From the IMG/VR virus record IMGVR_UViG_3300033146_004399, positions 1-64,000 of that record: a stretch of DNA of 64,000 nt; one strand, 5' to 3'. The DNA comes from a virus. How positions within the stretch are numbered: position 1 is the stretch's first letter; each line of letters begins with the position of its first letter. The notes beneath the pieces were generated by a model. It did no database searches and was not told where the DNA came from. It worked only from the letters and a program-made list of their open reading frames with translations. Positions 15,689 through 33,459 of this stretch are shown one piece after another. The position numbers were made by a program, and so were the translations under genes.

Positions 15689-16448
15689 TAATAAATTCCC
15701 ACAGCCTATAAAATTTATTAATCATTTTTTTTAATTCATTATTATATAACATTACTTCGCTATCACACAACGCTTCCTTACAGTTAGGATGCGTTTCTAA
15801 AAATAAACCATCTGCCCCGGCGGCTAAAGCGGTTACACCCAGTGTCTTTATTCTTTTTGTTTGGTTACCAGACCATCCCTTATTGGGATGCGTAATATCC
15901 CATAAAACTGGCATGTTATTTTCTTTCATAATTTCTATGTGCCGTGGGTCCATAAACACTTTATCATATCCTAACATAGTTCCTCTGTCAGTAAGTATGA
16001 TATCTTTAGCTCCAAATTCCAAAACATTATTTACTATATTCTTCATTTCCCATGGACTAACAAATTGAGGTTTTTTTATATGTAATTGCTTATCATATAC
16101 TTTACAATGATAAGCTGATGCTTTTAGTAAAGATTGTTGTTTGGCAAGATAGGCTGGTATCTGTATAACATCTACAAACTTTAATTCCTCCATTAGAAGA
16201 TGCTCAACATTGTGAACATCAGTACATATTTTTACATTATATTCATTTTTAATTTCTTGTAATAGAGATAAGGCCTCCTTCTCACATAAACCAGAAAATC
16301 CAGTGGAAAGAGTTCTATTATCTTTTTTAAACGATGATTTAAAAGTAAAATCTATATCTTTCCCTTTGACAGCTTCCAAAATAGATTCAATACTTTTTTT
16401 TAATTCATCCTTACTTTCTACTACACATGGTCCTGCTATCAATTTCAT
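15678..16448 (-). CDS. kdsA: KDO-8-phosphate synthase-like enzyme (metal-dependent type, divergent)
   Basis: IAGPCVVES; FKSSFKKDNRT; TDVH; QIPAYL; KKPQFVSP; DRG; DITH; GLFLETHP...ALCD. Confidence 0.85.
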   Translation of the reverse strand: MKLIAGPCVVESKDELKKSIESILEAVKGKDIDFTFKSSFKKDNRTLSTGFSGLCEKEALSLLQEIKNEYNVKICTDVHNVEHLLMEELKFVDVIQIPAYLAKQQSLLKASAYHCKVYDKQLHIKKPQFVSPWEMKNIVNNVLEFGAKDIILTDRGTMLGYDKVFMDPRHIEIMKENNMPVLWDITHPNKGWSGNQTKRIKTLGVTALAAGADGLFLETHPNCKEALCDSEVMLYNNELKKMINKFYRLWEFINEL

Positions 16449-17292
16449 TTTCGTCTCCTTCTGTTACTGCTAACTCGCAACTTTTACATATAAAATCTTC
16501 TGAAGATTTTATTTTACCATTAATTTTACTCATAATGGTTTTATATAATTTTGAATTATATATATCTTCCAACGTTTGATGTTTAATATTCCCTAAAACT
16601 ATAGATTTTGTATAATCCATGCAACAAAGAATTAACGAACCATCTGCTAACAAATTAAACCATTCGTATGGTATACCTTTTGTACAACCTTTAATTTTAT
16701 TATGAATAACTTTATCGATATGTTTTAATATTCCTCCACGAGTATAATTATAATTTTTTGATATAAAATATCGTTTTAAAAATTCTGCAGGTGTTTCATT
16801 TCTTTCATAATAACGATTTTTTATAACATTAAAATTTTTGTTATTTATTGAATAGTCATAAAGACTATTATATGCTTCAACCATTTTATTCCAATCAAAT
16901 TCGGTTATATTTGTATTATGAACAATGTTATACGTATCAGCGTTATATCCATCCAACGATACCATAATTTGATTTATTTTACTATTTTTAATATTATCAA
17001 TATTTTTATGTAATAATAGTCCATTAGTTACAAACCCGATATTAGAATTGGGTATAATATTTTTAATATATTCAACTCTATTAAATAAATATGGGTCTAA
17101 AAGTGGTTCATTTTCTAAATGTAAAAATATGTTTATATTATTAGCAGCGACTTCTTTCAATTCTTCAATAAATTTATTAAATACATATGATCTTATTGTA
17201 TCGTTATTATGATACACTAATCTATGTGGACATGAAATGCATTTTGCATTACAACTATCTATTGTTTGTATTTGAACATTGTTAATTTTCAT
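16411..17292 (-). CDS. Radical SAM protein with SPASM/twitch domain
   Basis: CNAKCISC; NEPLLDP; C...YEWFNLLADGSLILCCMDY...LGNI...ICKSC. Confidence 0.9.
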   Translation of the reverse strand: MKINNVQIQTIDSCNAKCISCPHRLVYHNNDTIRSYVFNKFIEELKEVAANNINIFLHLENEPLLDPYLFNRVEYIKNIIPNSNIGFVTNGLLLHKNIDNIKNSKINQIMVSLDGYNADTYNIVHNTNITEFDWNKMVEAYNSLYDYSINNKNFNVIKNRYYERNETPAEFLKRYFISKNYNYTRGGILKHIDKVIHNKIKGCTKGIPYEWFNLLADGSLILCCMDYTKSIVLGNIKHQTLEDIYNSKLYKTIMSKINGKIKSSEDFICKSCELAVTEGDENEIDSRTMCSRK

Positions 17293-18238
17293 TTTTTATT
17301 AAAAATTCCTCTCTATTAACCATTTTAGTATAATATTCAATTTGAGTATTTATAGTACTATATATATTTACATTATTCCATGATCCTATTCCAAGGGTAG
17401 AAATATTCGGTTTATTTTTTGTTATTTTTGTATTAAATGTATATTTAATAATATCATCATGGTTTAGTTCGTTTAGCGTTAATTGTATACCATTTTTTTT
17501 ATTCATCCAATCTAAAATATTAATAACATTATCTTGTTTTTTATAGTTACTTTCTTTAATAAATTTATTTATAACATTAACAAAATTTTCATTTATATTA
17601 CTATTACCTTTCCATTTATAATCATAAGCTGCAACTATTTCATCTACGTTAAATTTAGAAATTATATCTAAATCATTATAAAATAATTTTGAGCTAGAAC
17701 CTTCTAATACTAATAAATCAACAACAACAAACATCTTCCTAGAGTGTGCATATTCAATTAATTTTTTGAGCCTTTTTATATCTATTGAAATTCTATTATG
17801 AGCATCTAATATATTTTTATTAAATGTTTGCACTCCAATAATAATAGTATTTATATTATAATATTTAAATATATCAATTTGTTCAAAAGTTAATAACGAA
17901 GGATGTACCTCTATAGTTTTATGATTATCAATTTTATCAAAACTTAATAAAGAAAAAATATTATTCATATCACTAATTTTCATAATATTTGGTGTACCAC
18001 CACCAATCCAATAATATTGATTTTTAAACAAGCTAATTATAGAAAAATATTTTTTTATTAATTCAGGTAAATATTTTTTATAGTAAAAATCATAATCTTG
18101 TTTATTATATTTATATCCGCCATATGCACAAAAACTACATACTTTTTCACAAAATGGATTATGTAAATATACTTGAAAAATATCTTTATTTGTAATATTA
18201 TTATTCCAAATATTTTTAAGTTTATCATAATCAATCAT
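17282..18238 (-). CDS. HemN-like radical SAM protein
   Basis: YLHNPFCEKVCSFC; IGGGTP; TIEVHP; IGVQTFN. Confidence 0.8.
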   Translation of the reverse strand: MIDYDKLKNIWNNNITNKDIFQVYLHNPFCEKVCSFCAYGGYKYNKQDYDFYYKKYLPELIKKYFSIISLFKNQYYWIGGGTPNIMKISDMNNIFSLLSFDKIDNHKTIEVHPSLLTFEQIDIFKYYNINTIIIGVQTFNKNILDAHNRISIDIKRLKKLIEYAHSRKMFVVVDLLVLEGSSSKLFYNDLDIISKFNVDEIVAAYDYKWKGNSNINENFVNVINKFIKESNYKKQDNVINILDWMNKKNGIQLTLNELNHDDIIKYTFNTKITKNKPNISTLGIGSWNNVNIYSTINTQIEYYTKMVNREEFLIKNEN

Positions 18239-19079
18239 ATATTTTTACCCATTCATTAAAAAAGCTTTTACCTAAAAAATGACCATCCACGTCACAATGT
18301 TTACACGCGTCTATATCATGTCTTTTATTATTTATCATTTTTAATCTAATATCATCATTTTTCCATATATTAAAAATAGTAGTGTTTTTAATGTTTCCGA
18401 GTATATTTAATTTTGCAAAATTATGAGAACAAAACGTTACATCACCATTTAAGTCTAACATTAAAAAGTAAAATGGATAATAACAAGAAGTGTTATTGTT
18501 TGTATTGCTATTTAATAATCCACCTCTATTTGTTTTTTTAAATTCGCCATATCTTTTTCTAAAGAGTATATTATCAAAATTTACATTTTTATTCATATGA
18601 TTAAATTTTTTAATTTGCCAATCACCATCATATAAACTAATTAATAATACTTTTAAATTTACTTTTTTAAACTTTAACAACATATCATCGTTTAAAAGAT
18701 CACCATTTGTTACTATAACAGATTTTGCTTCAGGAATTTCGTGAGATATTATCTCTAAAAACTCTATAATATTTTTATGAAGTAAAGGCTCACACCAGCC
18801 TGAAAATACTAATTCTCCAGAATAATTAATTTGTTTTAAATTTTTAATAAAAATTTTAAAAATTTTCATAGTCATATAGTTTTTAACATATTTAAATTGT
18901 TCATAAAACCCATCTAATGAAACTGGGCAAAAAGAACAGGAACGAGTACAACCTGCAATAACATTTATTTCAATTTGGTTGGGTAATAATACACCATTAT
19001 AATATTGTTTTTTTATTTTTAAAATATTATTTTTATTTATAGGCCAATTACTAATTTTAGATTCCATTTTTTTATCCAT
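18231..19079 (-). CDS. Radical SAM protein with SPASM/twitch domain
   Basis: CTRSCSFC; FSGWCEPLLH; CYYPF...LNGDVTFC...ACKHC. Start moved to ATG 19079 to avoid overlap with the divergent gene. Confidence 0.85.
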   Translation of the reverse strand: MDKKMESKISNWPINKNNILKIKKQYYNGVLLPNQIEINVIAGCTRSCSFCPVSLDGFYEQFKYVKNYMTMKIFKIFIKNLKQINYSGELVFSGWCEPLLHKNIIEFLEIISHEIPEAKSVIVTNGDLLNDDMLLKFKKVNLKVLLISLYDGDWQIKKFNHMNKNVNFDNILFRKRYGEFKKTNRGGLLNSNTNNNTSCYYPFYFLMLDLNGDVTFCSHNFAKLNILGNIKNTTIFNIWKNDDIRLKMINNKRHDIDACKHCDVDGHFLGKSFFNEWVKIYD

Positions 19080-19127
19080 TATTTTTATATTATATAAATA
19101 ATTATGCTTTAAGGCATAATTATTTAT

Positions 19128-20123
19128 ATGAATAATTATATATGTTTCCAAGAATTTGGCCATGACGCTAATATAGCATTATATTTTAATAATCAATTAC
19201 TTCATTTAGAGGCTGAAAGATTTTCAAAAATTAAAAATGATGATAATATATCTAATATCAAATTGAATATGGATTTAACAAATTTTAAGCAGATATATAT
19301 TACCCATCGAACAAATGTAAGTTATTATGGCTTAAATAATATTAATTTTAATTTTCATGATAATATCATTAAAACTCGAAATAGATATCATCTTGAACAT
19401 CACACAGCTCATGCTGCATATGCCTATTATACTAAACCTCGAAATATGAATAAATGTGATATTCTTGTTCATGATGGATGGGGACTAATTACGGATCGTG
19501 TTTTTTTTGATGAAAATTTAAATAGAATTGATGATACTATTTCTGGAATTGGATTGTTATATAGTAGTATTGCTAAATTAATATTTGATAACACTCATCA
19601 TGCTGGAAAAGTAATGGGTTTATCTGCATATGGAAAATTTGATAATGAAATAACAAATTTATATCATACTCATTTGAATCAATATATAAATTTAAATCAA
19701 CATAAAAATAATATAAATTTACTTTTTGAAGAAAAAGCCCGAATAGGAGGTAGAAGAAGTATTATTGCTAATTTTTACGATAACAATAATAAACCAGATG
19801 CAGATTATGCATATGCTGTTCAAAAAATGTTTGAACAGTCCACTTTAAATTATTTAAAAAAATTTAAAACATCAAATAATTTATGTATAGCTGGTGGTTT
19901 AGGATTAAATGGCTATCTAAATAAAAAAATAATAGATGAAGGAATATATGAAAAAGTATACGTACCACCGGCATGTGGTGACTCTGGCCTTGCATTGGGC
20001 GGTGTATTATGGTTACTTAATAAATTAGAATCTAAAAATATAAACGATGATTTTATTGCGTATTTAGGAAATAATTATAATGTTAATGATAAAATAATTG
20101 AGGATATAATAAATGAATTATAA
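19128..20123 (+). CDS. Carbamoyltransferase, N-terminal (Kae1-like) domain (CmcH/NodU family)
   Basis: GHDAN; EAERFSKIK; EHHTAHA; DGWG; AGKVMGLSAYG; AGGLGLNG; PPACGDSGLALG. Confidence 0.9.
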   Translation: MNNYICFQEFGHDANIALYFNNQLLHLEAERFSKIKNDDNISNIKLNMDLTNFKQIYITHRTNVSYYGLNNINFNFHDNIIKTRNRYHLEHHTAHAAYAYYTKPRNMNKCDILVHDGWGLITDRVFFDENLNRIDDTISGIGLLYSSIAKLIFDNTHHAGKVMGLSAYGKFDNEITNLYHTHLNQYINLNQHKNNINLLFEEKARIGGRRSIIANFYDNNNKPDADYAYAVQKMFEQSTLNYLKKFKTSNNLCIAGGLGLNGYLNKKIIDEGIYEKVYVPPACGDSGLALGGVLWLLNKLESKNINDDFIAYLGNNYNVNDKIIEDIINEL

Positions 20124-20671: not shown

Positions 20672-21655
20672 TTAATTACGGCCTAAATTAATATTATCTA
20701 AATTATAAAATCCTAAACATGGGCCATTACACAAACCTTTATAAAATCTACATTCTAAACAAGGAGCTGGTGGTGTTATTATAGATTCTATTATTTTATA
20801 TCTAATAATAAGATCATTGGCTACTATATCGAGACTATCATATTTAGTAGAATCAACAGCTATAGTATCTTTTAATGGATAACAATAACTTACAGTATTA
20901 TCAGGAAAAATATCAGCTGGTACGCCATCCACACCGCACTTTAAACTAAGTCTATTTACAAATTTTTTAATATATTTATATTCTTCTTTGTTTTCGAACA
21001 TACATGGAAATAAAATGCAATCAATTGAAGGAGCAATTCCATTATGAACTGCTCCGCTCACAAGAGCTAAAACTATTTTACCTAATTCTTTATTATTTAT
21101 AAAGTAAAAATCTTCTTTATCCTCTTTATTTCCTGGAAAATTTATACTTATTCGCAGCCTTTCTAGAGCAGGCACATTATTTATTAAAAAATTTAAATAA
21201 TTTATATAATATTTTTTATCATTATTATATATAGTTAATCCAACAGATATATTTTCTTCCTGATCATTTGGATATGCTGCCTTATATAAAGCAGTGTAAT
21301 TTTTACTCCATAATTTTATTCTATTAAATTTATCTAAATCTGTAGCATTAACTAAATATTGAATATTAATTTTTTTACCAGCATCAATTAATAATTCTAA
21401 AATATCGTTGTTAAATAAAAAATTACTTATTAGTGTAAAAGGTCTATTTTTTTTAATTAAAAGTTCAACAAATTCTTTAAATAATGGATGCTGAGTCGGT
21501 TCACCCCCTAAAAGTTTAATTCTCGTATTTGTTTTATCAATTAAATTTTCAAATTGTTCTAAACTCATTGTACTATTAGGATTATTTTCTTTATTTTCAT
21601 GTGCAAAACAATATGGACAACCCTTGTTACAAGACGTGGTTAAAATAAAATTCAT
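20672..21655 (-). CDS. Radical SAM/SPASM protein
   Basis: CNKGCPYC; LLGGEPTQHP; C...ADIFPD..VSYCYP...CLECRF...CNGPC. Confidence 0.9.
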   Translation of the reverse strand: MNFILTTSCNKGCPYCFAHENKENNPNSTMSLEQFENLIDKTNTRIKLLGGEPTQHPLFKEFVELLIKKNRPFTLISNFLFNNDILELLIDAGKKINIQYLVNATDLDKFNRIKLWSKNYTALYKAAYPNDQEENISVGLTIYNNDKKYYINYLNFLINNVPALERLRISINFPGNKEDKEDFYFINNKELGKIVLALVSGAVHNGIAPSIDCILFPCMFENKEEYKYIKKFVNRLSLKCGVDGVPADIFPDNTVSYCYPLKDTIAVDSTKYDSLDIVANDLIIRYKIIESIITPPAPCLECRFYKGLCNGPCLGFYNLDNINLGRN

Positions 21656-21672: not shown

Positions 21673-22290
21673 TTATATTTTCATTATAGATATTAATAAA
21701 GATTTCCGTAGACTCAAATTTACATTTTTATTTTGACCAAAAAACAATTTTTTACTAGATTTAAATAAAAATTCATTAGTATAGTCTAAATCAACAATAT
21801 CAAAATTATCATAATTAGTTTCAGCATTTTTTATATTATTATTAATTTTAAATATTTTAATAAAGTCTCCTATTAAAGGTATAACATGAAAGCCATAAAT
21901 CATATCTTCTATTTTATTTTTAATATGTGTTGTAATTAAATCTAAATGTTCATCTTTACTCTGTACTATTGAAAATACAAATTCGTATTTTGCATCGGTA
22001 GGAACATTAAAAAATGTTTTTAATACATTAACATATTTTTCATTATTTAAAAATAATGAAAATAAATTTTTATCCTCAACTTCAAGTCTATCAAGTTGAT
22101 TACTTGAAAATTTGAATTCTTTAAAAAACACAAGTGGTCCATTGATTCCGGATTTATATTTATTAATATTAATTGCATTAACTGCTGTTTTGATATCTTC
22201 ATTAATTAAATTTGTTGTTAAAAACTCTTTATCACTATTATTTAAAATATATTGTAATTTATCTGTTTCATCAACATTAAATATTTCCAT
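21673..22290 (-). CDS. Hypothetical protein within the rSAM operon
   Basis: 205-aa ORF, translationally coupled to the upstream rSAM; no motif recognised. Confidence 0.6.
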   Translation of the reverse strand: MEIFNVDETDKLQYILNNSDKEFLTTNLINEDIKTAVNAININKYKSGINGPLVFFKEFKFSSNQLDRLEVEDKNLFSLFLNNEKYVNVLKTFFNVPTDAKYEFVFSIVQSKDEHLDLITTHIKNKIEDMIYGFHVIPLIGDFIKIFKINNNIKNAETNYDNFDIVDLDYTNEFLFKSSKKLFFGQNKNVNLSLRKSLLISIMKI

Positions 22291-23618
22291 TATGTTCTCC
22301 TTTTAATCATTAAAGATTGATTAAAATTAATCCCCAAACTACTTTTAAAATTCGGATCAATCGAAATCTCAAATCCCCTATTTTTTAAATCATTAATAAA
22401 TTTACTTTTAGCCATATTAATAATATTAGTTTTAGCATTAAAATACCAAATACCATCATTATTTTTGTTGGTTTCATACATTCTTTCAAATAATTTTATT
22501 TCATTTTTTATTAGAAATGTATGTAAAGGTTTAAATATATTACAAACTAAATTATCTCTTATACCAAATTCACCATATTTACTATAATGAAAAGCTATAC
22601 AACCATGATCGCAAATATTGTCGGCTGGGCATAAATCACAACCCAAATCATGCACTAATTTATCTTTAATCTTTATTGTGCTGAAAAATCTTTTTATTTG
22701 TTTTAATTCTAAAAATTCATCATCTTTAACATTTTGAACAAATGTTTCTTCAAAATCTTGAGAATATCTACCGCAAAAATGTACATCTCCGTTGGGATTA
22801 ATTTCTATAATATGCATTCCGCCGCCGCATAATTTTAATCCACAATTACTTTTATGTTCTTCAATTATTAAATTACCACTAATTATTTTAGCGAAATGTC
22901 TTTTAACTATTGTTTCAATATTATCTTCAACAATAGTTTGATATTTACCGTTAATAAAATTATTTAGTATTGGTATCCATGCTTTATTTACAAAATCTTC
23001 TCCGGATACTTCACTATTGCCCACATTATTAACATCTTCTGCATAATTTACTTTAATACCTGAAATATTATATTTATTAAGAACATAATCTATACTTTCC
23101 TCAATATTTTTAATATTTGCTTGGTTTACCACTATTAAAAATCCATATTTAATATTAAACTCTTCTAACATTAAAAAATATTTTTCAAATTTATCGGTAT
23201 TTATTTCTGTTCTAGCAGAATTAGATTCTCTAATCCCATCAAACGATACTCCAACACTAACATCAAAATCATGTAATATTGTTAATAATTCTTTATTTAT
23301 TAAAGTAAGATTTGTTTGTATACCAAAATTATAAACAATATTATTTGCTTTAAAAGCTCGTGAAGAATACGATAAAAATTTCATAAACTTTTGTACACCT
23401 AATAATAATGGTTCACCCCCATGAAAAATTAAAGTAAATGTGCCATTATATTTGTTTTTTTTTCTATCACTAATAATTCTTTGTATAATAATTTTAAAAG
23501 TATCAAACTCCATCATTTCACCTTTAAAATTATCTTTATTTTTTACATAACAGTAAGAACATCTTAAATTGCAATCACGAGTGACTTTGAGTATTAACAT
23601 GTTTGTATTTCCAAACAT
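22290..23618 (-). CDS. Radical SAM/SPASM peptide maturase (anaerobic-sulfatase-maturase-like; resembles cyclophane-forming XyeB/GrrM/FxsB type)
   Basis: LILKVTRDCNLRCSYCY; IFHGGEPLL; IQTN; VSFDG; C..C....EINPNGDVHFC...CDLC....CDHGC...C. Confidence 0.85.
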   Translation of the reverse strand: MFGNTNMLILKVTRDCNLRCSYCYVKNKDNFKGEMMEFDTFKIIIQRIISDRKKNKYNGTFTLIFHGGEPLLLGVQKFMKFLSYSSRAFKANNIVYNFGIQTNLTLINKELLTILHDFDVSVGVSFDGIRESNSARTEINTDKFEKYFLMLEEFNIKYGFLIVVNQANIKNIEESIDYVLNKYNISGIKVNYAEDVNNVGNSEVSGEDFVNKAWIPILNNFINGKYQTIVEDNIETIVKRHFAKIISGNLIIEEHKSNCGLKLCGGGMHIIEINPNGDVHFCGRYSQDFEETFVQNVKDDEFLELKQIKRFFSTIKIKDKLVHDLGCDLCPADNICDHGCIAFHYSKYGEFGIRDNLVCNIFKPLHTFLIKNEIKLFERMYETNKNNDGIWYFNAKTNIINMAKSKFINDLKNRGFEISIDPNFKSSLGINFNQSLMIKRRT

Positions 23619-23824
23619 TATTTTTTCCTCTTAAGCATTTCTGCGTTTAATCCTTCGGTGAAAGCATCAAAACATTCACTACATAAAATTTCTGTAGTTG
23701 TTATATCCATATTCGGAATATGTTCCCAGGTATCGTCTGTTCTTATTCTTTGAGAATTGATATTAAAATTAACTTCAACCTTAATATTATTAAATTGTTT
23801 ACCGCAAAATGTACATTTTTCCAT
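23618..23824 (-). CDS. Small zinc-ribbon-like protein (CxxC...CxxC)
   Basis: 68 aa, CTFC and CSEC; sits between the repeat protein and an rSAM, with RBS GGAG. Confidence 0.6.
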   Translation of the reverse strand: MEKCTFCGKQFNNIKVEVNFNINSQRIRTDDTWEHIPNMDITTTEILCSECFDAFTEGLNAEMLKRKK

Positions 23825-23844: not shown

Positions 23845-24768
23845 TTATATTGTATTTGCATAATTAGCATGATTAGTATAAGCCGCAGCTGTATAACTTA
23901 TTGTATTTGAATAAGAAGGATCAACATACCCAGCAAGTTCATCAGTTTTTATTTTTAAATTCTCCCAATCTGATTTAGTTATTATATCTCCAGGAGCTTT
24001 ATCAGCTAAGGCTGGGGTAGATGAGTCATCGTCACCTCTGATCTCAGCCCATAAACTATATAAACTATCTCTTAACGCAATATATTGATTATCTTCTACA
24101 AATTCAGGAGTAGCAGGATTTGCGTCGTTAAATTTTGCATCACCAACATTAGCAGAGGAAGCAGCAACATCAACAGAAGCATTCTGTTGACTTTTTATTG
24201 TACTTAAAATATTAATATTATCTCTAATATTTTTTATGGCTTCAATACCATCTGATATGAGGGTTGTATTTAAAACATTTTCAGTCCAAGGTTCACTCCA
24301 AGTTAATGTTTGGGCGTTACCACTATCTTGATTAGCATAATTGACATGATTTGTATAATCTTGAGAAGTATTACAGTTATCTGACGCATTATTATAATAT
24401 GTCGAGCATGCATTATTTGAATTTGAATAGGATGTCGAGCATGCATTATTTGAATTTGAATGGGATGTTGAACAATAATTATTTGTATTCGCGTGGTATG
24501 TTGAACAATAATTATTTGAATTCGCGTGGGACGTCGACCAACTATTATCATGAGATGTTGCACAGGCATTATTTGAATTTGAATAGGATGTCGAGCATGC
24601 ATTATTTGAATTTGAATGGGATGTTGAACAATAATTATTTGTATTCCCGTAGTATGTTGAACAATAATTATTTGAATTCGAATATGCGACGTTACACACG
24701 TTTGTGTAATCTGTATATACTATACCTGTTGTACAATTATTATAATCGAAATATTCATTATAAGCCAC
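23845..24768 (-). CDS. Putative radical SAM modification target: 11-aa Cys/[Y,H]-x-N repeat protein with a non-repetitive C-terminal domain
   Basis: Cys at residues 12, 25, 36, 47, 58, 69, 88, 99, 110, 121, 132; unit CSTx[YH]xN[ST]NN[YA]; YTN-HVN-YAN and terminal YTN-HAN-YAN; RBS GGAG; flanked by rSAM/SPASM genes. Confidence 0.8.
   Translation of the reverse strand: MAYNEYFDYNNCTTGIVYTDYTNVCNVAYSNSNNYCSTYYGNTNNYCSTSHSNSNNACSTSYSNSNNACATSHDNSWSTSHANSNNYCSTYHANTNNYCSTSHSNSNNACSTSYSNSNNACSTYYNNASDNCNTSQDYTNHVNYANQDSGNAQTLTWSEPWTENVLNTTLISDGIEAIKNIRDNINILSTIKSQQNASVDVAASSANVGDAKFNDANPATPEFVEDNQYIALRDSLYSLWAEIRGDDDSSTPALADKAPGDIITKSDWENLKIKTDELAGYVDPSYSNTISYTAAAYTNHANYANTI
24373..24696 (-). repeat. 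33-bp coding tandem repeats including an exact 81-bp duplication
   Basis: 24410-24490 is identical to 24566-24646 (offset 156 bp = 52 aa). Confidence 0.9.
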
Positions 24769-24778: not shown

Positions 24779-25849
24779 CTAAGTTCTAAAAATTTTATTT
24801 AATATTAAATTTATCTTACATAAAACAGGAGAAATAATGTTATAATTTCCAGAATTTATTCGCATAGCTGCTAAGCATCCCCCCTTACACCAATCTACAG
24901 CAGGGCATGTTTCACAAATTTTATTAATTTTAAACTTATCGATATTAACTCTTTCTGTAAGTTTTGAATAATATTCATTATTATAATAACCGGTATATAT
25001 ATCACCGTAAAACTCGTTATAATTATCATCAAAATCTTTCATTTTAGGAACTAACTGGTGACAAAAGAATAATTTACCATTGGGGGCAATAGTTGTCACG
25101 GAATTTGGTTTATGACAAAAATTTTGTTGCATATAAAAATTATTATTTAATATACGATTTATTGCGTCAACATATGGCGGTAACTTCTTAATTTTAAACA
25201 ATGATGTTAATTGTTTTTCTATTGATGTATATGCTTCATCTGTATATTCAACATTAAAATTATATAATATATTAACATTTACTCCAAGACTAATTAAAAA
25301 TTCATAACTTTCTTCTAAATATTGATAATTATTATTACTAACCACCATAAGAACTGTCGGTATTATACCGATATATTTAAATTTAGAAATTAATTCTGGA
25401 AATATTTTCATTGTTTGATCCCAACTGCCAGTGTTATTTTGTGTTATTCTGTTGATATCGTGTGATTTTCGAGTACCATCTAAAGATATAATTGGATATA
25501 TTTTATGTTTTAACATAAATTCAATCATATCACTATTTAATAACAATAAATTTGAATTCATAGTATATTTAAATTTATTGTTTAAAGATTTTTCAACGAA
25601 TTTTTTTATAAATTCCCAGTTCATAGTAGGTTCACCACCAAAAAAACTTATCGACGGTGATTCAGAGCACGTTTCTTTAATAAATAAAAGTATATCATCG
25701 ATCATGTCTAACTGCATAGTATAATTATAGTTACATATTGTACGGTCTGAGAATGCGTCATCAAAGCAATATTTACATCTTAAATTACAATTTTCAGTTA
25801 ATATTAACTCATAATAATTTATAGATAAATTTTTCGGTTTATTAATCAT
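24779..25849 (-). CDS. Radical SAM/SPASM peptide maturase-like protein
   Basis: CNLRCKYC; FFGGEPTMN; ISLDG; FC...TIAPNGKLFFCHQ...CETC...WCKGGC...C. Confidence 0.9.
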   Translation of the reverse strand: MINKPKNLSINYYELILTENCNLRCKYCFDDAFSDRTICNYNYTMQLDMIDDILLFIKETCSESPSISFFGGEPTMNWEFIKKFVEKSLNNKFKYTMNSNLLLLNSDMIEFMLKHKIYPIISLDGTRKSHDINRITQNNTGSWDQTMKIFPELISKFKYIGIIPTVLMVVSNNNYQYLEESYEFLISLGVNVNILYNFNVEYTDEAYTSIEKQLTSLFKIKKLPPYVDAINRILNNNFYMQQNFCHKPNSVTTIAPNGKLFFCHQLVPKMKDFDDNYNEFYGDIYTGYYNNEYYSKLTERVNIDKFKINKICETCPAVDWCKGGCLAAMRINSGNYNIISPVLCKINLILNKIFRT

Positions 25850-25851
25850 TT

Positions 25852-26760
25852 TTATTCCTTTATTGGTATTAAGTCTAAATTATTTTTATATTTTTCATAG
25901 TATTCTTTCCATACTCCAATGCAACGTTTATTATAGATGCAATCTTCACATGTTTTTGGCTTTCTATATTCTTCACGAATAAGTTTATTGTAATCTTCAA
26001 TGGCAACATCATTAATAGCATGGTCATGGCCTCTATTACCATTAGATAATAATCTATCTCCATCAGAATAATATACTTGATTTACATATGGATGAATATA
26101 ACACAATGGTATCGCTTCAACATATAATAAATTACCATATTTTTCAAAACATTGATGTATTGATTTTTTTATAGTAATGTATTGAGGGACAACAACATCA
26201 ATGTTTGTAAATGCGTTACCATTAGGATGCGGAAATGTCATATTCATAGCATTTATTCCTAAAACATTATGTATAAAATCATATGTTTTTAATAAATTAT
26301 CCACGTTCATTTTAGATAAAACTGTTTGCGAATTTATGATAGAATTTGTTTTATATTTATTTAAATATTTAATACCTTGTATTGTTTCGGCCCAACTACC
26401 TTTTCTATCCGTAATAGCATCATGTATAAATTCATTATGAGAATGAATAGCTATTAAATAATAATCTATATATTTTACAGATTCTTTTGTGAATTCTTCA
26501 TCATTAAAACGTCTCCCATTAGTTTGTAATATTATTGGACTTTTAGTTTCTTCTTTTATATATTTTATTATTTCTATAAAATCTTTTCGTATAGTTGGTT
26601 CTCCGCCTGTTATTACAATTCTTTCACCTGGTTTTACTTCTTTATATATAATATCTTTTATTTGTTGCGTTGATAAATTTCCAGAATTAATTTTATCAGT
26701 TATTACGCAATGAACGCAATTATTATTACAAGAAAAACCAACTTTTAAATCAAACGACAT
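25852..26760 (-). CDS. Radical SAM protein, HxsC-like (His-Xaa-Ser system maturase type)
   Basis: CNNNCVHC; ITGGEPT; LQTNGRRF; HDAIT..KGSW.ETIQGI; EAIPLC; K...CEDC.....CIGVW..Y tail. Confidence 0.75.
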   Translation of the reverse strand: MSFDLKVGFSCNNNCVHCVITDKINSGNLSTQQIKDIIYKEVKPGERIVITGGEPTIRKDFIEIIKYIKEETKSPIILQTNGRRFNDEEFTKESVKYIDYYLIAIHSHNEFIHDAITDRKGSWAETIQGIKYLNKYKTNSIINSQTVLSKMNVDNLLKTYDFIHNVLGINAMNMTFPHPNGNAFTNIDVVVPQYITIKKSIHQCFEKYGNLLYVEAIPLCYIHPYVNQVYYSDGDRLLSNGNRGHDHAINDVAIEDYNKLIREEYRKPKTCEDCIYNKRCIGVWKEYYEKYKNNLDLIPIKE

Positions 26761-26770: not shown

Positions 26771-28762
26771 TTAATATGCTATTTTTATATCTTTATCATA
26801 TAAATTAGAAATAATAATTTCATCAAGTTTTTGTTTGCCTTGTTGATAAGTATTAAATATGTCAATTAATTTATATAGTCCACCAGATATATTATAATGT
26901 TCATTTGTTACAAAACTTTTTTGTTTTTGAAACATCGAATAATAATTAAAAATTATACTATTTTCAACAAATTGTACTATAGATATATTTTTATTTTTAT
27001 CTGATTGTAAATTCATATTATATGCTACAAAAAAATCTGTATTCATTTGAAGGTTAATATATTTTTTTAATTCTTTCATATATATATCAGTTAAGTTTTT
27101 TCTTTTATAAAATGGTAATGCGTTATATAGCCCTTGAACTTCACCCAACGTCTGAATGGTTTTCATAAAAACACCAGAAGTGGTGGTATGAAAATTATTA
27201 TTTATAAAATTTAATACATCATCTTCAAAATTTTGAATAATTATTTCTGTATCAAGTTTATTATTATCTAAATTATAACGGGCTTGAATAATATGCGTTG
27301 CGCTAATTAACGATATTAATCGTTGCAACGAATGCTGGTGAGCTATATCTTTAATTTTAAACATATTTTTAATTATTAAATTTGACTTTTTTAATATATA
27401 TTCAATATAATAATTATTGTGTTTCCACTTATATGTATTTACAATATTCCTAGTAAATACATATAAAAATTTAGTTAAACTTACAATTTTTAAATTTAAT
27501 TGCCAATTAATATCTTTTAATTCTGATTCGTCAAATGATTTCCCATTATTTATATAATTTATTGTTAACCTTATAAATGGAGATTTATTACTCATTTCGT
27601 CCATATGAAATCTATTTTTCATTGTAAAAAAATTATTATTAATATTGTATTTATTTAAAAATATTTCATAATCTTTGTCATTATTTAATTTATCTAATTT
27701 TAATGTAGATAAGTATTCATTAGTTAAAAATTTATAAGCTAAATCATCTTTATATTCTATATCTGGATATATATGTATAAAATGTTTTAATATAATTTGT
27801 TTAAAATAATTTACAAAATAAATATCAACGCTATTGCATTCTTTTATAAATTCATTTAATCCTTTTATCATTAACACATACATTTTATAGTTGTATGATA
27901 AATAAAATATTCGTATAAATATTTTATTATAATGTATAAAATTATCATCATGTAATATCATTTTATCTAGTAAATATTGCATCATGGCCATAATATATTC
28001 TATATTTTTATATTGAAATAAATATGTAAACTGTCTATCATCTTGCAATTTATTTGCCAAATCTATATAATTTATATCTTCTATATTTTCCATAATAGAA
28101 TAAGGTTCAATATCGAAAAATTTAAACACATAATCAATATGAGATTTGTAATTATATTTAAATTCTTTATTAAACCAATACATGATATTATCGCTATCAA
28201 CTTCATTTACATAATTAATGTTATTTTCTTTTAATAAATTTTTAAGATATTCTGCATAATATTGATTGTTTCCAGTTATTTTATATTCTTTATTTTCAAC
28301 TTTAAAATTTTGTAACTTAGTAAAAGTTAAAGTATCAACATTAATATGTATATTTTTTTTATTTGATGTAGTATTATCGGTATAAGGTAATAAGTCAAAT
28401 AAATCAATAATAAATTTATTTTTAATGTTAATTTCATCAAAATGAGTAATCTTATTTTTAAATATAATATTATCCATTTTAGTTTTAATAAACATTACAA
28501 CAGAATTTATTTTTGATTCAACAAATATATTATAATTAATAATAATGTCGGTAATTTCTATTTGGTCTGTTATATTAAAAATAGAATCATATAGCTCTTT
28601 ATTATAATTGTTTGTATTTAAAATAGATTTAACCCATTTAATATCAACGTTATAATAATATAAAATATCATTAAACAATTTAAAAATATTTATATTAAAA
28701 ATATTTTTATCAGTTTTACGAGTTGTTAAAATATTTTTATTATTTTTATTAAAACTATACAT
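26771..28762 (-). CDS. Large hypothetical protein, paralog of 28755-30587
   Basis: 663-aa ORF; C-terminal half aligns by eye with the neighbour (IEYI...QR.ISL...RYN.DN.K.D...Q.LYNA). Confidence 0.65.
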   Translation of the reverse strand: MYSFNKNNKNILTTRKTDKNIFNINIFKLFNDILYYYNVDIKWVKSILNTNNYNKELYDSIFNITDQIEITDIIINYNIFVESKINSVVMFIKTKMDNIIFKNKITHFDEINIKNKFIIDLFDLLPYTDNTTSNKKNIHINVDTLTFTKLQNFKVENKEYKITGNNQYYAEYLKNLLKENNINYVNEVDSDNIMYWFNKEFKYNYKSHIDYVFKFFDIEPYSIMENIEDINYIDLANKLQDDRQFTYLFQYKNIEYIMAMMQYLLDKMILHDDNFIHYNKIFIRIFYLSYNYKMYVLMIKGLNEFIKECNSVDIYFVNYFKQIILKHFIHIYPDIEYKDDLAYKFLTNEYLSTLKLDKLNNDKDYEIFLNKYNINNNFFTMKNRFHMDEMSNKSPFIRLTINYINNGKSFDESELKDINWQLNLKIVSLTKFLYVFTRNIVNTYKWKHNNYYIEYILKKSNLIIKNMFKIKDIAHQHSLQRLISLISATHIIQARYNLDNNKLDTEIIIQNFEDDVLNFINNNFHTTTSGVFMKTIQTLGEVQGLYNALPFYKRKNLTDIYMKELKKYINLQMNTDFFVAYNMNLQSDKNKNISIVQFVENSIIFNYYSMFQKQKSFVTNEHYNISGGLYKLIDIFNTYQQGKQKLDEIIISNLYDKDIKIAY

Positions 28763-30587
28763 ATATATAACTCATATTTAATACATTTTTTGTTAAATGA
28801 AAAGTATTAGGAATAATTTTATTATTAGACTTATCAATTCCCTCATGAATTATTTCTAATAAATATTCACCATCATATATATGATTTTGTATAAATCTAT
28901 ATGGTATAGTCATAGATGGAAACATTGTATACGAAGCTAATAAAAATATTTGTTCATATATATCATGACGATTATTAATCTCATATTTTTCATTAACATT
29001 TGATATATCATTTTGCTTAAATCCATACATTGAAGCTACAAAGTCATAATGATTAAGTGAAATAATATTTTTGAATTCATTTAATATATCATTAAAAATA
29101 TTTGATACATCTACTCTTTTTAAAATATGTTGAGCATTATATAATGATTGTATTTGAGAAATTATTTCTATTACTTTATATATTGCTAATGGCAAATAAT
29201 GATATTTATTATCAGTAATAAATTTGATTTCTTTTACATAATCTTCTAATAAAGAAATATTATCCCATTTTTTATTATCCATATTATATCTATATTTTAT
29301 AGAATTTTTAAAATATATTAAACTAATAAATCTTTGATAAAAAAATGTATTAAATTTATCATGGTTTAACATTACTTTATTAATTATTTTTTCTAATCTT
29401 AGTATAATATATTCTATATTTATATTATTTTTTTTCCAACCTTGAAAAGAATATTTTCTAGCATATGATATTGCTGCAACACCTAAGATTATCATTTTAA
29501 CGTTTTCATTTTCAAGATCAACATCAGGTATATTAAAATTTTCAGATATGCAATTAATATAATCATAAATATCATAGTTTGTTTGCATATCTGCATTTCC
29601 ATATTTTTCCGGTATTAAACTATACATATCCATTCCAAACACATATAATTCTTTCATCAATTCTTTCTTATTAAAATCCATATCATATTTTGGTAATTTC
29701 ATATAAATATTTATTATTTTATATGAAACATTATTATCATTTTTAATATATTCAATCATAGCAAGATAATATCGAATTATTAGTTTTTGATAATGATAAA
29801 TATATTTTTTATTTTTAACAAAATGTAACATTTTATTTGTTACCAATAATATTGAATATATTATTTTTTCATTTGTTATATAGTTCAATAAATGAAAAAA
29901 ATTTTTAATATATTTTTTTAATAATATTTCGTTATTTTCCGTATGTATTATTACTGCTAATTCACTTAAACTATCAATATAATTAGTTTTATTAATATAC
30001 ATAAAATTTTTTATAAAAAATTTATTATTAATATCAATATCAATATTTTTAATTAAATCATTGCATGTAATATGCTTAGTAACAATTTTTGGTTCTAATA
30101 CATCAAATAATTTATCTATTCTTTCTTTTTCATTATTACCGATAATATTAAGCTCAGACTGCTCAGACTGCTCAGACTGCTCAGACTGCTCAGACTGCTC
30201 AGACTGCTCAGACTGCTCAGACTGCTTAAGCTTTATATTATTATAATCATTAATTATTAATAATTCATAAAGTGTTTCTGAATCAGTATACACTTCCACA
30301 TTTTTATTTGTTAAAACAATAAAATCAAATATATATTTGTTGATTGTACTTATAAACAAATGCGTATCAATATCAAAACTTAAAGCTGATAATATTTTAA
30401 TATACAAATTTCCTTCAGCATTATACTGTTTTAAACTTTGATACCATTCTTTGTTATATTTATTTATAGTAAATCTTAAATATTCTTCTTTTGTAATATT
30501 TCCATATTGTTTAATTAAATCTATAATATATGCAGGATTAAATCCCTTAGCTTTTTTATTACATTTATCATAAAATACTTTATTCAT
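28755..30587 (-). CDS. Large hypothetical protein with (QSE)8 insert
   Basis: 610-aa ORF overlapping the start of the downstream paralog. Confidence 0.65.
   Translation of the reverse strand: MNKVFYDKCNKKAKGFNPAYIIDLIKQYGNITKEEYLRFTINKYNKEWYQSLKQYNAEGNLYIKILSALSFDIDTHLFISTINKYIFDFIVLTNKNVEVYTDSETLYELLIINDYNNIKLKQSEQSEQSEQSEQSEQSEQSEQSELNIIGNNEKERIDKLFDVLEPKIVTKHITCNDLIKNIDIDINNKFFIKNFMYINKTNYIDSLSELAVIIHTENNEILLKKYIKNFFHLLNYITNEKIIYSILLVTNKMLHFVKNKKYIYHYQKLIIRYYLAMIEYIKNDNNVSYKIINIYMKLPKYDMDFNKKELMKELYVFGMDMYSLIPEKYGNADMQTNYDIYDYINCISENFNIPDVDLENENVKMIILGVAAISYARKYSFQGWKKNNINIEYIILRLEKIINKVMLNHDKFNTFFYQRFISLIYFKNSIKYRYNMDNKKWDNISLLEDYVKEIKFITDNKYHYLPLAIYKVIEIISQIQSLYNAQHILKRVDVSNIFNDILNEFKNIISLNHYDFVASMYGFKQNDISNVNEKYEINNRHDIYEQIFLLASYTMFPSMTIPYRFIQNHIYDGEYLLEIIHEGIDKSNNKIIPNTFHLTKNVLNMSYIYV
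30152..30226 (-). repeat. 9-bp tandem repeat, 8 perfect copies (GCTCAGACT)
   Basis: Read directly; encodes QSE x8 in frame. Confidence 0.95.
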
Positions 30588-30638: not shown

Positions 30639-33344
30639 TTAAGCCATTAATATTAATACTTCTACTCTTTGTGGAGAAGAATCTGTTTTTTCTTCCATTA
30701 CTTTAGCAAATACTTTACCAAGTCCATCTTCAGTATTTTGCTTAACTGTACCAAATCCAACCTTTTCAGAAGTTATCAATAAGTCGCCGAAAAAACAAGG
30801 TTCTTCAACCCACACCCATACTCTACCAGATAATCCAACTGGTACCTTACCTTCACTTTTTTCATCACCACCTAAAGCATAACCATAAGAATCTGAATAA
30901 ACACCAACAACCGTTCCATCACCCCTTTTACTTGCAGGTTTGACACCATCAGCAGTTTGAACTAATACTTGTCCAACTTCACATTCTTCGGCAGCTGGAA
31001 AAAATTCTGCAAGGTCATTGTAAACTGCGTTATAAACTCTTGTTGCATAAAAATAACCATCATAGTTAAGTCTCGTCGAAGATGAAGGGGCTGTAGCTCC
31101 ACCATAAAGTTTACCAGCTGCTTTTGTGTTTCCGTTGTAAGCAAGAAAACCAACACTTGCAGTACCAGCAGCATAATCTGGTAGAGTAGCATTGCTATGT
31201 GTATGCGAATCATTATTAACCGCTGCGCTTATTGCTATATTAGCACTTCCATCGAAGGCAACTGCAGTTGCAGTTATATCACCAGTAATATCAATAGTTC
31301 TAGCAGTTGCTAATTTAGTAGCTGTAGAAGCATTACCCGTAAGAGTACCACTTATGCCTGCAGAAGCTGTAACAGCTTTAGAAAGTGTAATGAGTGAAGG
31401 TGTAAGAGTCATCACATTTGCAAGTGCAGCTGTTTCACCAACTGCTTGAGAAGTAGGTGTTATCTTAAAACTCCAGATACCGTTAGTTTGGTCCCAAATT
31501 TCATGAAATCCATATCCAGTTTCTGTCATCTCGTGTTGCGAATTGATAAATCTGTTACCAATTCTAAAATTAAAGTTACCACCGCCGTCGTTTGATGTTA
31601 TTTGATGCTTTCCAGCTTCAAACAATATACCTCCACCTAAGCCACCACTTACTTCCAAACCAGTTACTTCAAGATCAGTACCGTTAAATTTTATAGCTGC
31701 TGTTGTTTTAAAACTTTGAGAAGTTCCATCCCAATAAGGTACTCCATTTGTTATAGGCGTGTCTTCTCTTGTTGCTACTGCTTGAAGGGAACCTACCATA
31801 CCAACTTCAAAGGTATCGCTTGCTTCATCGAAAAGGAATTGATAATTTGTTTCTGTACCTCTTTCAATTTCCAACCCAGCATTTTGTGAAGGAGTACCAG
31901 CTTCATTACTATTAAGAATGATTATATTATCAGCCATAGCAATAGTTTCAGTATTAATAGTGGTAGTGGTGCCGGAAACAGTTAAATCACCTTGAACTAT
32001 AAGAGAGCCAGACATAGTATCACCATTTATATTAATAAATCTAGCATCACTTTCAGTCTCTGTATAATATCTAGTATCATGAGTATGTGAATCATTGTTA
32101 ACTGATGCGGTGATTGTTATATTAGTACTCCCATCAAAAATTACCGCATCTGATGTTATATCACCACTAATATTAATAGTTCTACCTGTTTCAAGTATTG
32201 TCGCTGTTGAAGCATTACCATTTATTGTATTTATATAAGCTGAAGAAAATATTTGTGTAGCAGAACCTATGTTTCTTACAGAAATATTGCCAATTGCACC
32301 AGTCATTTCTGGGAGTATATCACCATCAATAAATATACCAGTATCCGAAGTTAACGTTATTGTTTCTCCGGTAGGAGTTTCCATATTAATAGCTGCAGGC
32401 GAAACTGCGCCTGATAAAACAACTTCATTGTATGTAGAGCCGTCATAACTAACATTGAACGTGTCGTTGGTACCAGATATAGCGACTCCACCTAAATAAA
32501 TAGTGTTAGCGGCAAAATGACCTTCATCAGCATAAACATTACCAAAAGGTTTTGTTGCAGAACCCAAATCAACAGCATTAGTATTAGGGATAATATTATG
32601 TACAACAGCATTCAAAGACGTAGCTGTTATTGCTGTGTTAAAATCTAATTGATTTGAATCTATACCATCATGATCGTGACCTGATTGACCAAAGAATTTT
32701 TCATCAACATATATTTTAGTTGCATAATTTACTAAGTCTGAAGCTGAATTTATAACAGCTGTTAATTTTTGATCTGGTCCTTCAATATTATATGTAAATT
32801 GAATTTTATCAGTTTGTGGATCCCCATCTGAATAAATAAGATAATCATTCCCTGAACCTTGCTCTTGTAAAACACCATTTAAAAAAACCATAAGGTTTGA
32901 CCCATCTGCCGCAGCAGTATCTGAACCTAAATCAAAAATACTACCTGTTCCTTGGGGATCATTATCATCAACACCAGTCCAATTTGTAGCTTCATAAGAC
33001 ATTTTTAATACTAATTCTCTATCTTCATCACCTGAAGCAACACCAGTACCTGCTATTAATTGGTGATAAGGTTCTGTTGATAAACCAATCCACAATTCAT
33101 TCGTATTAATATCATAATACATTTGACCTGCCTGAGAGCCATCCCAAATTGGAAGTTCTGCAGTTGTAACCATCTTGATAAGACCTTCGGTTATCCAACC
33201 AGTAGCATCATTTTGCCATGCTTCTATTTTAGATTGTTTAATTTCTGCGTCATTTGCTATATGTGCGTTAGTAAGTCTGTGATCTATCCCATTAACTATA
33301 TCATTACCAATACCAAATATTTGTTCTGCTCGTAATCTCGGCAT
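30639..33344 (-). CDS. Tail-fibre-like protein with a C-terminal peptidase G2/IMC-like chaperone domain
   Basis: GNASTAT.L.T.RTI.I.GDIT...FDGS..I.I.A.VNNDSHTH repeated twice; HTHDTRYYTETE; NAGLEIERG; C-terminal NDLAEFF...VGVYSD...VPVGLSGRVWV...GDLLITS. Confidence 0.75.
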   Translation of the reverse strand: MPRLRAEQIFGIGNDIVNGIDHRLTNAHIANDAEIKQSKIEAWQNDATGWITEGLIKMVTTAELPIWDGSQAGQMYYDINTNELWIGLSTEPYHQLIAGTGVASGDEDRELVLKMSYEATNWTGVDDNDPQGTGSIFDLGSDTAAADGSNLMVFLNGVLQEQGSGNDYLIYSDGDPQTDKIQFTYNIEGPDQKLTAVINSASDLVNYATKIYVDEKFFGQSGHDHDGIDSNQLDFNTAITATSLNAVVHNIIPNTNAVDLGSATKPFGNVYADEGHFAANTIYLGGVAISGTNDTFNVSYDGSTYNEVVLSGAVSPAAINMETPTGETITLTSDTGIFIDGDILPEMTGAIGNISVRNIGSATQIFSSAYINTINGNASTATILETGRTINISGDITSDAVIFDGSTNITITASVNNDSHTHDTRYYTETESDARFININGDTMSGSLIVQGDLTVSGTTTTINTETIAMADNIIILNSNEAGTPSQNAGLEIERGTETNYQFLFDEASDTFEVGMVGSLQAVATREDTPITNGVPYWDGTSQSFKTTAAIKFNGTDLEVTGLEVSGGLGGGILFEAGKHQITSNDGGGNFNFRIGNRFINSQHEMTETGYGFHEIWDQTNGIWSFKITPTSQAVGETAALANVMTLTPSLITLSKAVTASAGISGTLTGNASTATKLATARTIDITGDITATAVAFDGSANIAISAAVNNDSHTHSNATLPDYAAGTASVGFLAYNGNTKAAGKLYGGATAPSSSTRLNYDGYFYATRVYNAVYNDLAEFFPAAEECEVGQVLVQTADGVKPASKRGDGTVVGVYSDSYGYALGGDEKSEGKVPVGLSGRVWVWVEEPCFFGDLLITSEKVGFGTVKQNTEDGLGKVFAKVMEEKTDSSPQRVEVLILMA

Positions 33345-33387
33345 CTTATATCTCCTCTATGATAAATTTTTAATTTAATTTTCTAAT

Positions 33388-33398
33388 ATATCTTTACA
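33388..33398 (-). promoter_or_regulatory. Candidate late promoter TGTAAAGATAT upstream of the 901-aa fibre
   Basis: Recurring motif, placed just after the upstream terminator. Confidence 0.5.
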
Positions 33399-33426
33399 AA
33401 TAGAATGCCTTTGTGAGCATTTTTAT

Positions 33427-33459
33427 AAAAAAAGAGCCAGGAAAATCTCCTGGCTCTTT
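33427..33459 (-). terminator. Intrinsic terminator after the 2300-aa gene
   Basis: AAAGAGCCAGGA-AAATC-TCCTGGCTCTTT stem, followed by a U-tract on the - strand. Confidence 0.85.

Follow-up and report, generated by a model that had tools for sequence, protein, structure and literature searches.

A phage repeat protein that may be a full-length tail-fibre-module substrate of a radical-SAM cassette

Small secreted peptides and a handful of cellular proteins (sulfatases, QhpC and, since 2026, HxsA) are known to be cross-linked by radical S-adenosylmethionine (rSAM) enzymes. In the QhpC/QhpD system, an rSAM/SPASM enzyme modifies the gamma subunit of quinohemoprotein amine dehydrogenase, which stays a protein. 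The substrate of another such enzyme, PapB, shows the spacing C-x3-D. Triceptides, which contain three-residue cyclophanes, are made by rSAM/SPASM enzymes of the three-residue cyclophane-forming type (3-CyFE), such as XyeB, GrrM, FxsB, YhhB, HaaB, HtkB and ChlB (PMC11499958). HxsA, described in 2026, is a 214-amino-acid (aa) repeat-plus-domain protein of the antiphage HXS system that is matured by HxsB, HxsC and HxsD, two rSAM enzymes taking part, and is used as a protein (PMC13128918). Here we describe a 307-aa protein encoded at 23845-24768 of a 64-kb window, the first part of the 179-kb IMG/VR virus record IMGVR_UViG_3300033146_004399 (estimated 63% complete), which lies amidst a set of rSAM enzymes. 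On balance, and by a small measure above even chances, we favor the view that it is a full-length protein of the tail-fibre module and the dedicated substrate of a phage rSAM cassette, being neither cleaved nor exported. The gene, the parts of its product and the cassette around it are as follows (RRE, RiPP recognition element, RiPPs being peptides that are made on ribosomes and modified post-translationally; ORF, open reading frame):

23845..24768, minus strand: proposed substrate gene, 307 aa, founding a new family of about 65 proteins
24736..24768, minus strand: conserved N-terminal motif (aa 1-11), M-A-Y-x-E-Y-F-[N/D]-Y-x-N, directly preceding the first Cys
24331..24735, minus strand: repeat array (aa 12-146) with 11 Cys, an 11-residue period and 16 [H/Y]-x-N triplets
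23881..24330, minus strand: conserved helical domain (aa 147-296), three long helices in the AlphaFold2 (AF2) model
23854..23880, minus strand: C-terminal Y-T-N-H-A-N-Y-A-N (aa 297-305), an [H/Y]-x-N tail conserved in the family
25852..26760, minus strand: HxsC/HxsC4-like rSAM enzyme (105 and 113 bits, both below cut-off)
24779..25849, minus strand: PapB/SCIFF-maturase-like rSAM/SPASM enzyme without an N-terminal RRE, proposed Cys-thioether synthase
23618..23824, minus strand: 68-aa CxxC...CxxC zinc-ribbon-like protein, universal cassette member, no family match
22290..23618, minus strand: 442-aa rSAM/SPASM enzyme, universal maturase, proposed cyclophane synthase on [H/Y]-x-[N/D]
21673..22290, minus strand: 205-aa ORF, no family match, not conserved at other loci
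20672..21655, minus strand: 327-aa rSAM enzyme, present in most cassettes

The repeat array is built of units of the form C-S-T-S-[H/Y]-x-N-x-N-N-x, or more generally C-x-x-x-[Y/H]-x-N, eight of which can also be read as N-x-x-C. Its Cys residues are found at positions 12, 25, 36, 47, 58, 69, 88, 99, 110, 121 and 132, with a spacing of mostly 11, and the array ends in Y-T-N-H-V-N-Y-A-N at residues 138-146. In the gene, Tandem Repeats Finder reports 8.5 copies of a 33-nt period, and the segments coding for residues 33-73 and 85-125 form an internal duplication with 93.5% DNA identity and 34 of 41 codons identical, which is too recent for a reading of the nonsynonymous to synonymous substitution ratio (dN/dS). 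Residues 1-146 hold 18 aromatic-x-[N/D] triplets. Composition-matched shuffles give 7.8 +/- 2.1, and a count of 18 was never reached in 5000 of them. Four further [H/Y]-x-N triplets are present in the C-terminal tail. The repeated aromatic-X-X motifs by which triceptide systems are recognized are thus found in this protein. The second copy of the triplet run at the very C-terminus, which had been noticed in an earlier note made from the sequence alone, is indeed present at residues 297-305.

The ORF opens with a GTG codon, and a strong Shine-Dalgarno sequence, AGGAG, is located 7 bases upstream, where it overlaps the stop codon of the preceding gene. This start site is confirmed by two homologues, which begin at the same point with M-x-Y-x-E-Y-F. 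Only 10-20 nt separate the gene from its neighbours, it is on the strand of the fibre and baseplate genes, and a promoter/terminator scan, otherwise uninformative in this AT-rich DNA, revealed no terminator between it and its neighbours. Across the three closest family members Y3, E5, Y6, F7 and C12 are invariant. The earlier note had placed the start of the repeats at about residue 9-25 and had spoken of no leader. The array does start at Cys12, so that the leader of at least about 20 residues ahead of the core that typifies classical RiPPs is missing; however, a conserved 11-residue motif precedes the first Cys, and since this is possibly a minimal recognition sequence, the claim should read "no classical leader".

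A word-indexed search of 5.8 billion proteins recovered just two homologues, each on a 1-kb contig that nevertheless retains an rSAM enzyme upstream and a small CxxC protein downstream. A profile of the C-terminal domain run against 1.84 billion cluster representatives detected 65 proteins, almost all with one and the same layout; 45 of the matches reached E<=1e-10. None of the 65 bears a name, and neither Pfam, PHROG nor NCBIfam has a model for the family besides the Peptidase_S74 (S74) and Gly-rich domains found in some members; as judged from sequence, this family of about 65 proteins is undescribed and new. It falls into two types. Type A proteins, which resemble the one in the window, start with M-A-Y-x-E-Y-F-N-Y-x-N-C and contain 2 to 29 Cys in repeats, with Y or H at position +4 in 61% and N or D at position +6 in 57% of their 240 Cys sites. 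Type B proteins are devoid of Cys, and their N-termini consist of runs of His at every third residue. Common to both are the junction Y-x-N-H-x-N-Y, the helical domain and a tail in which more [H/Y]-x-N triplets follow. At the N-terminus, the Y-x-E motif is seen in 37 of 45 Cys-bearing as against 1 of 18 Cys-less members, these being raw counts that ignore shared ancestry.

Peptidase_S74 is an intramolecular chaperone domain that assists trimer folding of phage fibres and spikes. Four Cys-less type B members (P0047, P0050, P0051 and P0054) carry this domain (PF13884) at the C-terminus with scores of 57-60 bits against a cut-off of 22, and one of them additionally possesses a Gly_rich_2 domain. 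As in S74 fibres and spikes such as K1F endosialidase and the T5 L-shaped fibre, the domain terminates these proteins, following directly on the [H]-x-[N/S] tail, and the fusion thereby marks the preceding part as a fibre-type protein. In contrast to those fibres, the protein in the window and most Cys-bearing members are without S74, and the helical domain matches no solved fibre structure. The family appears to be one of uncultivated phages, with no isolate phage among 50,697 records: tblastn against these records gave no match, whether the query was the entire protein, its C-terminal domain or a relative lacking Cys. Likewise, no confirmed locus of the family emerged from the scanned IMG/VR, JGI metagenome contigs and 185,579 species genomes.

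Comparison of ten distinct contexts (the window, L004/L005, L006, L007, L008, L009, L010, L011/L012, L013 and L014), with orthologous groups defined by local BLAST, revealed rSAM genes flanking the family member in nine of them; the tenth, L009, ends at the gene. The core cassette comprises the substrate, a zinc-ribbon protein of about 70 residues and a SPASM rSAM enzyme of about 440 residues, around which the other rSAM enzymes vary. Orthologues of the zinc-ribbon protein and the 442-type enzyme are found at every locus long enough to show them, the latter at L004, L007, L008, L010, L011, L013 (two copies) and L014. Orthologues of the 327-aa enzyme (40-58% identical) are encoded at L007, L008, L010, L011, L013 and L014, and those of the HxsC-like enzyme at L004, L006, L007, L008 and L013, the latter being absent from L010, L011 and L014. 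A PapB-like orthologue lies directly upstream of the family member in all six Cys-bearing loci (the window, L007, L008, L010, L011 and L014) and in neither of the two Cys-less loci with enough sequence (L004 and L013), counts that are small and take no account of shared ancestry. Because its presence follows that of Cys in the substrate, the PapB-like enzyme is suggested to act on Cys, and because the 442-type enzyme and the [H/Y]-x-[N/D/S] triplets are both universal to members, that enzyme is suggested to act on the triplets. This co-variation of enzymes and motifs constitutes the best evidence here that the protein is the substrate.

Two variations on the cassette were observed. In L013, two tandem copies of the 442-type enzyme (7681-8895 and 9099-10379; 43% and 40% identical to that of the window) flank the zinc-ribbon gene. 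L004 (11777-13678) and L006 (1702-3579) encode the HxsC-like enzyme as part of a longer fusion protein (626-633 aa) that has two Radical_SAM domains; these double-domain fusions adjoin Cys-less, S74-bearing substrates.

The cassette is placed among tail genes, a position expected of a structural protein. In the window the minus-strand order is the 2300-aa gene, the 901-aa fibre gene, the 610/663-aa paralogues, the HxsC-like enzyme, the PapB-like enzyme, the substrate and the 68-aa protein, followed by the 442-aa rSAM enzyme, the 205-aa ORF and the 327-aa rSAM enzyme, then four rSAM enzymes interleaved with sugar genes, and finally the baseplate genes. The 901-aa gene (30639-33344) gave tblastn matches to the long tail-fibre distal subunits of Vibrio and Aeromonas phages, and the individual baseplate wedge genes lie at 9717-11972 and 12019-12378, which bears out the earlier assertion that the island sits between baseplate and tail-fibre genes. 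Tail-fibre or baseplate genes adjoin the cassette in five of the ten contexts (the window, L009, L011/L012, L013 and L014). At L009 and L013 the family member comes after genes that are closely homologous to the two fibre genes of the window; at L011/L012 a protein matching tail-fibre PHROGs is found just upstream of the cassette; and the L014 island is closed by orthologues of the gp25-like and gp6-like genes of the window. The slot between fibre and baseplate is therefore conserved. The surrounding features of the window are:

30639..40382, minus strand: tail-fibre genes of 901 and 2300 aa, upstream of the cassette and the two paralogues on the same strand
26771..30587, minus strand: two paralogues (663 and 610 aa) that separate the fibre gene from the cassette, no family match
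12491..19163, minus strand: accessory pathway for a sugar like 3-deoxy-D-manno-octulosonic acid (Kdo), with KdsA-like, aminotransferase, KdsB-like and aldolase genes and four rSAM enzymes
9717..12378, minus strand: baseplate wedge genes, gp6-like and gp25-like (phrog_219, phrog_6, phrog_261, phrog_43), which close the island
40468-42060, 47141-48229, 50128-51231, 52214-53392 and 59305-61041: homing-endonuclease genes scattered in the window

A structural protein is favored because of the S74 domain in four type B members, the synteny with fibre and baseplate genes, the want of an RRE in any maturase, and the closeness of one flanking maturase to a solved enzyme, anSME, that acts on whole proteins; further, the first 146 residues have neither Lys/Arg nor a cleavage motif, and the C-terminal domain is better conserved than the repeats. 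The earlier proposal of a full-length virion component, as opposed to a leader-core peptide, accordingly receives partial support: the conserved and confidently folding C-terminal domain, the S74-bearing relatives, the synteny and the lack of RREs, proteases and exporters speak for a fibre-type protein that would remain full-length, and its presence in the particle is a matter that we infer.

These same observations bear on another explanation, that the protein is a multi-core RiPP precursor with a large C-terminal follower, whose repeats would be cross-linked, excised by a protease of the host or by an unrecognised one, and released at lysis as bioactive peptides. The repeat units, with their triceptide-type and Cys motifs, do resemble multi-core precursors, and the gene is situated among its maturases as in a RiPP gene cluster. 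However, residues 1-146 contain not a single Lys or Arg, and no recurring cleavage motif was found in them. No protease or transporter was recognized in the island with Pfam, NCBIfam or PHROG scans, as had been claimed earlier, nor was any protease or exporter seen in the ten contexts (precomputed Pfam tables were used for the other loci). The earlier note had also held that a dedicated protease or exporter elsewhere in the genome would speak against a full-length product; neither ABC_tran nor Peptidase_C39 has a match in the 179-kb record, itself an estimated 63% complete. The 205-, 610- and 663-aa ORFs match no family and could hide a protease or a transferase. No PqqD/RRE leader-binding domain was matched among the island proteins, and the alignment of the PapB-like enzyme to the models of RRE-bearing maturases does not begin before about model position 75-115. 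One putative stand-in for an RRE would be the 68-aa zinc-ribbon protein. Moreover, the 170-residue C-terminal domain is the best-conserved part of the family, the repeats being less so, and it is followed by a tail-fibre chaperone domain in four relatives. We therefore consider release of excised peptides improbable.

In terms of its closest matches, the enzyme encoded directly upstream of the substrate is akin to the thioether maturases of ranthipeptides and sactipeptides, such as PapB, the SCIFF maturase CteB and NxxcB. Its best NCBIfam match is PapB (NF047865; 136 bits against a cut-off of 340), it has the SPASM motif CX2CX5CX3C near its C-terminus (C-E-T-C-P-A-V-D-W-C-K-G-G-C), and the Cys residues of the substrate are regularly spaced. 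It differs in that the spacing here is C-x5-N/D or N-x-x-C, in the sub-threshold score and in the lack of both RRE and leader. The 442-type enzyme has its best NCBIfam matches, all below cut-off, with DynA, anSME, PapB, YhhB, DarE and AmcB, and aligns from position 2-7 of the anSME, DynA and PapB models; its solved relatives in the PDB are anSME (closest), CteB and the triceptide synthase ChlB. The likeness to triceptide systems lies in the recurring aromatic-x-x triplets, often back to back and including His-first motifs, in the SPASM rSAM enzyme adjoining the substrate and in ChlB being among these solved relatives. On the other hand, the substrate here has 307 aa, includes a folded domain, lacks a classical leader and belongs to a phage tail module. 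For the 3-CyFE families (XyeB, GrrM/OscB, FxsB, YhhB and AmcB), whose cut-offs are 310-450 bits, the 442-type enzyme reaches 56-99; the cross-link is put forward as a proposal.

As with QhpC/QhpD and sulfatases/anSME, rSAM/SPASM enzymes would here modify a protein that remains a protein; both enzymes flanking the substrate match the QhpD model with E ~1e-23 to 1e-25, below its cut-off, and among solved structures the 442-type enzyme is closest to anSME. Unlike in those systems, the scores are sub-threshold (116.9 bits against 349.45 for the anSME equivalog TIGR03942), substrates and motifs bear no relation to theirs, and the setting is one of viral structural genes. Formylglycine formation of the anSME type was set aside, as the target motif C/S-x-P/A-x-R is not present in the substrate. 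The IscU- and A-type Fe-S carrier families are not represented in the 179-kb record.

By analogy, HxsA is the direct precedent for a full-length, rSAM-matured repeat-plus-domain protein. In both systems a protein-sized substrate combines a folded domain with short repeats of the His-x-small kind and is accompanied by a pair of adjacent rSAM enzymes and a small partner, and the product is used as a protein rather than being released as a small peptide, as is known for HxsA and would hold here. This likeness raises the alternative of a non-virion effector: once matured by rSAM enzymes, the full-length protein would do its work inside the infected cell or in the cell envelope, such as the exclusion of superinfecting phages. 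Consistent with it, HxsC-like and HxsB/PapB-like enzymes are encoded directly upstream of a repeat-plus-domain protein, and the HXS defence system works via a matured protein of this kind (PMC13128918). However, the system at hand is phage-encoded and resides in a tail module, and its enzymes score far below the cut-offs of the relevant models (HxsC, TIGR03977, 105 bits against 267.9; HxsB, TIGR03978, 89 against 370; HxsC4, 113.5 against 500). None of the 68-aa, 205-aa, 610-aa and 663-aa products has an NCBIfam match to HxsD, and PADLOC returned generic viperin-level matches alone for the rSAM enzymes, with no HXS match in the library version used. The HxsC-like gene is dispensable, being missing at three loci (L010, L011 and L014). 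The repeats are [Y/H]-x-N with Cys and neutral or acidic, as opposed to the basic His-x-Ser repeats of the HxsA type. Effectors of the HxsA type further have a peptidoglycan-binding domain and are processed at the N-terminus for export; here, a Pfam scan of the substrate detected no domain, including no peptidoglycan-binding domain, and inspection of its sequence disclosed no signal-like N-terminus that would suggest export. As the S74 fusions and the tail-module synteny point to the particle, an effector role seems unlikely to us.

The earlier note had described a non-repetitive domain of roughly 150 aa with two amphipathic helices and had suggested that its structure be predicted and searched against phage tail proteins. 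The domain is as described, the two helices being predicted at about 171-191 and about 265-280. AF2 modelling of residues 137-307 with a 64-sequence alignment yielded a confident fold (pLDDT 89.1, pTM 0.81) with helices at about 171-191, 226-244 and 265-280; folding of the whole protein from three sequences was unusable (pLDDT 31). We take the C-terminal domain to be a real, conserved, folded module, which may serve as an anchor or follower, as the earlier note had proposed. The search part of the suggestion did not lead to any phage tail protein: Foldseek of the model against PDB and BFVD gave nothing at E<=0.001, and a profile search against PDB sequences had no match. The best BFVD row, a 200-aa Myoviridae protein labelled SCIFF (E 0.13), is a lead only, being above E 0.001, and the best of 48,161 chains compared with VIA-align, a designed helical filament (Z 7.8), is within the noise for helical bundles. 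In P0006, P0008, P0034 and P0035, inserts of about 85 to 230 residues with no Pfam match occur between the helices of the domain, which would fit a scaffold that displays variable modules.

We accordingly picture, as a proposal, a protein with a short N-terminal motif, a variable C-x3-[Y/H]-x-[N/D] array, a three-helix domain and a short [Y/H]-x-N tail. The 442-aa SPASM enzyme, together with the 68-aa zinc-ribbon protein, would introduce aromatic-to-beta-carbon (triceptide-like) cross-links at [Y/H]-x-[N/D], the PapB-like SPASM enzyme would form Cys thioethers within each repeat, and the HxsC-like and 327-aa enzymes would add further modifications. The substrate would be recognized directly, with no classical leader, and would undergo neither cleavage nor export; the cross-linked protein would then join or decorate the tail-fibre apparatus.

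The fibre tip of T4, gp37, binds iron via His motifs. It may be asked if the present protein is an unmodified fibre or metal-binding protein, with repeats that are structural or coordinate metal and with rSAM enzymes that serve the Kdo-like sugar or some other small molecule. The repeats are rich in His and Cys and could bind metal, and the Kdo-like genes (with an aldolase or SIS gene and extra rSAM enzymes) accompany the cassette in four phage lineages, those of the window, L008 (10187-14173), L013 (12293-17457) and L014 (13637-16552). However, in the available sequence of L007, L010 and L011 the substrate and at least four rSAM enzymes are kept and sugar genes are absent, which further weakens this explanation. 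In addition, the flanking enzymes resemble peptide- and protein-modifying SPASM maturases rather than sugar enzymes, and the PapB-like enzyme tracks Cys in the substrate. We hold this explanation to be very improbable. The sugar pathway may serve glycosylation of the Ser/Thr/Asn-rich substrate or of the fibres, and no glycosyltransferase was recognised.

Several points weigh against a modified, full-length tail-module protein. That it is modified at all, which bond each enzyme makes and its place in the virion are each drawn from sequence comparisons. None of the rSAM enzymes reaches the curated cut-off of any named family, and because of this the proposed chemistry rests on resemblance. The conserved 11-residue N-terminal motif could be a mini-leader, i.e. 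a very short recognition sequence, and the counts behind the co-variation of the PapB-like enzyme with Cys are those of a handful of loci. The C-terminal domain resembles no known tail protein in structure and profile searches, and Peptidase_S74 is found neither in the protein itself nor in its 179-kb record. With regard to position, variable islands of T4-like phages are often located between structural genes without being structural, L010 has no recognisable structural neighbours in its 18.7 kb, and the sequences of L007 and L008 are almost filled by the cassette.

Our searches of the literature brought up no virion or tail protein on which rSAM enzymes are reported to act. The nearest mention is of a marine T4-like genome with 12 rSAM genes, the role of which was left unexplained (PMC5332604). 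Modification of whole proteins by rSAM enzymes is already known, and what is new here are the protein family, the cassette and their setting. If our view of the protein is right, RiPP-type cross-linking extends to a phage tail protein and thus to virus structure. More broadly, and with confidence that stops somewhat short of an even chance, we suggest that a lineage of large uncultivated T4-like phages builds part of its fibre apparatus from an rSAM-stapled protein, with RiPP-type chemistry serving as virion structure, a modification of which no earlier case has been described in a virus particle. Thioether and cyclophane rings would staple each repeat of 11 residues and might also join one chain to another, and the protein may receive a Kdo-like sugar as well. 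The cassette could also explain the 9 to 12 rSAM genes of some marine T4-like phages (PMC5332604). Practically, it would offer a tractable system with no need for a classical leader, with many sites per molecule and with enzymes that can be tested separately, in which the Cys-bearing and Cys-less subfamilies, with and without the PapB-like enzyme, provide a built-in matching of enzyme to motif.

Some other features of the region deserve mention. Neither a family nor a solved structure matches the 610- and 663-aa paralogues; relatives of these are encoded just upstream of the cassette at L007 (5509-7683), L008 (3-2413) and L014 (7109-8911), and they may be conserved parts of the system. Within the gene for the 610-aa protein, a perfect 9-nt repeat of 8.3 copies at 30152-30226 encodes an (S-E-Q) run. 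At L009 (9333-10004) and L013 (5959-6615), an ORF of 218-223 aa that matches no family reaches into the start of the Cys-less member; it has no counterpart in the window and may be a fibre assembly factor. The only gene of the island on the opposite strand is a NodU/CmcH-type carbamoyltransferase that is split into N- and C-domain ORFs (19128-20123 and 20113-20670, plus strand) with an 11-nt overlap. The homing-endonuclease genes listed above, at least five in number and of HNH and other types, are dispersed among structural genes. Finally, all nine Radical_SAM matches of the 179-kb record fall between 2.3 and 26.8 kb of the window. The ninth of these, an rSAM/SPASM enzyme at 1662-2924 on the minus strand, has as its best match the CXXX-repeat peptide maturase (TIGR04115; 183 bits against a cut-off of 350), which points to a further rSAM system within this phage, separate from the first.

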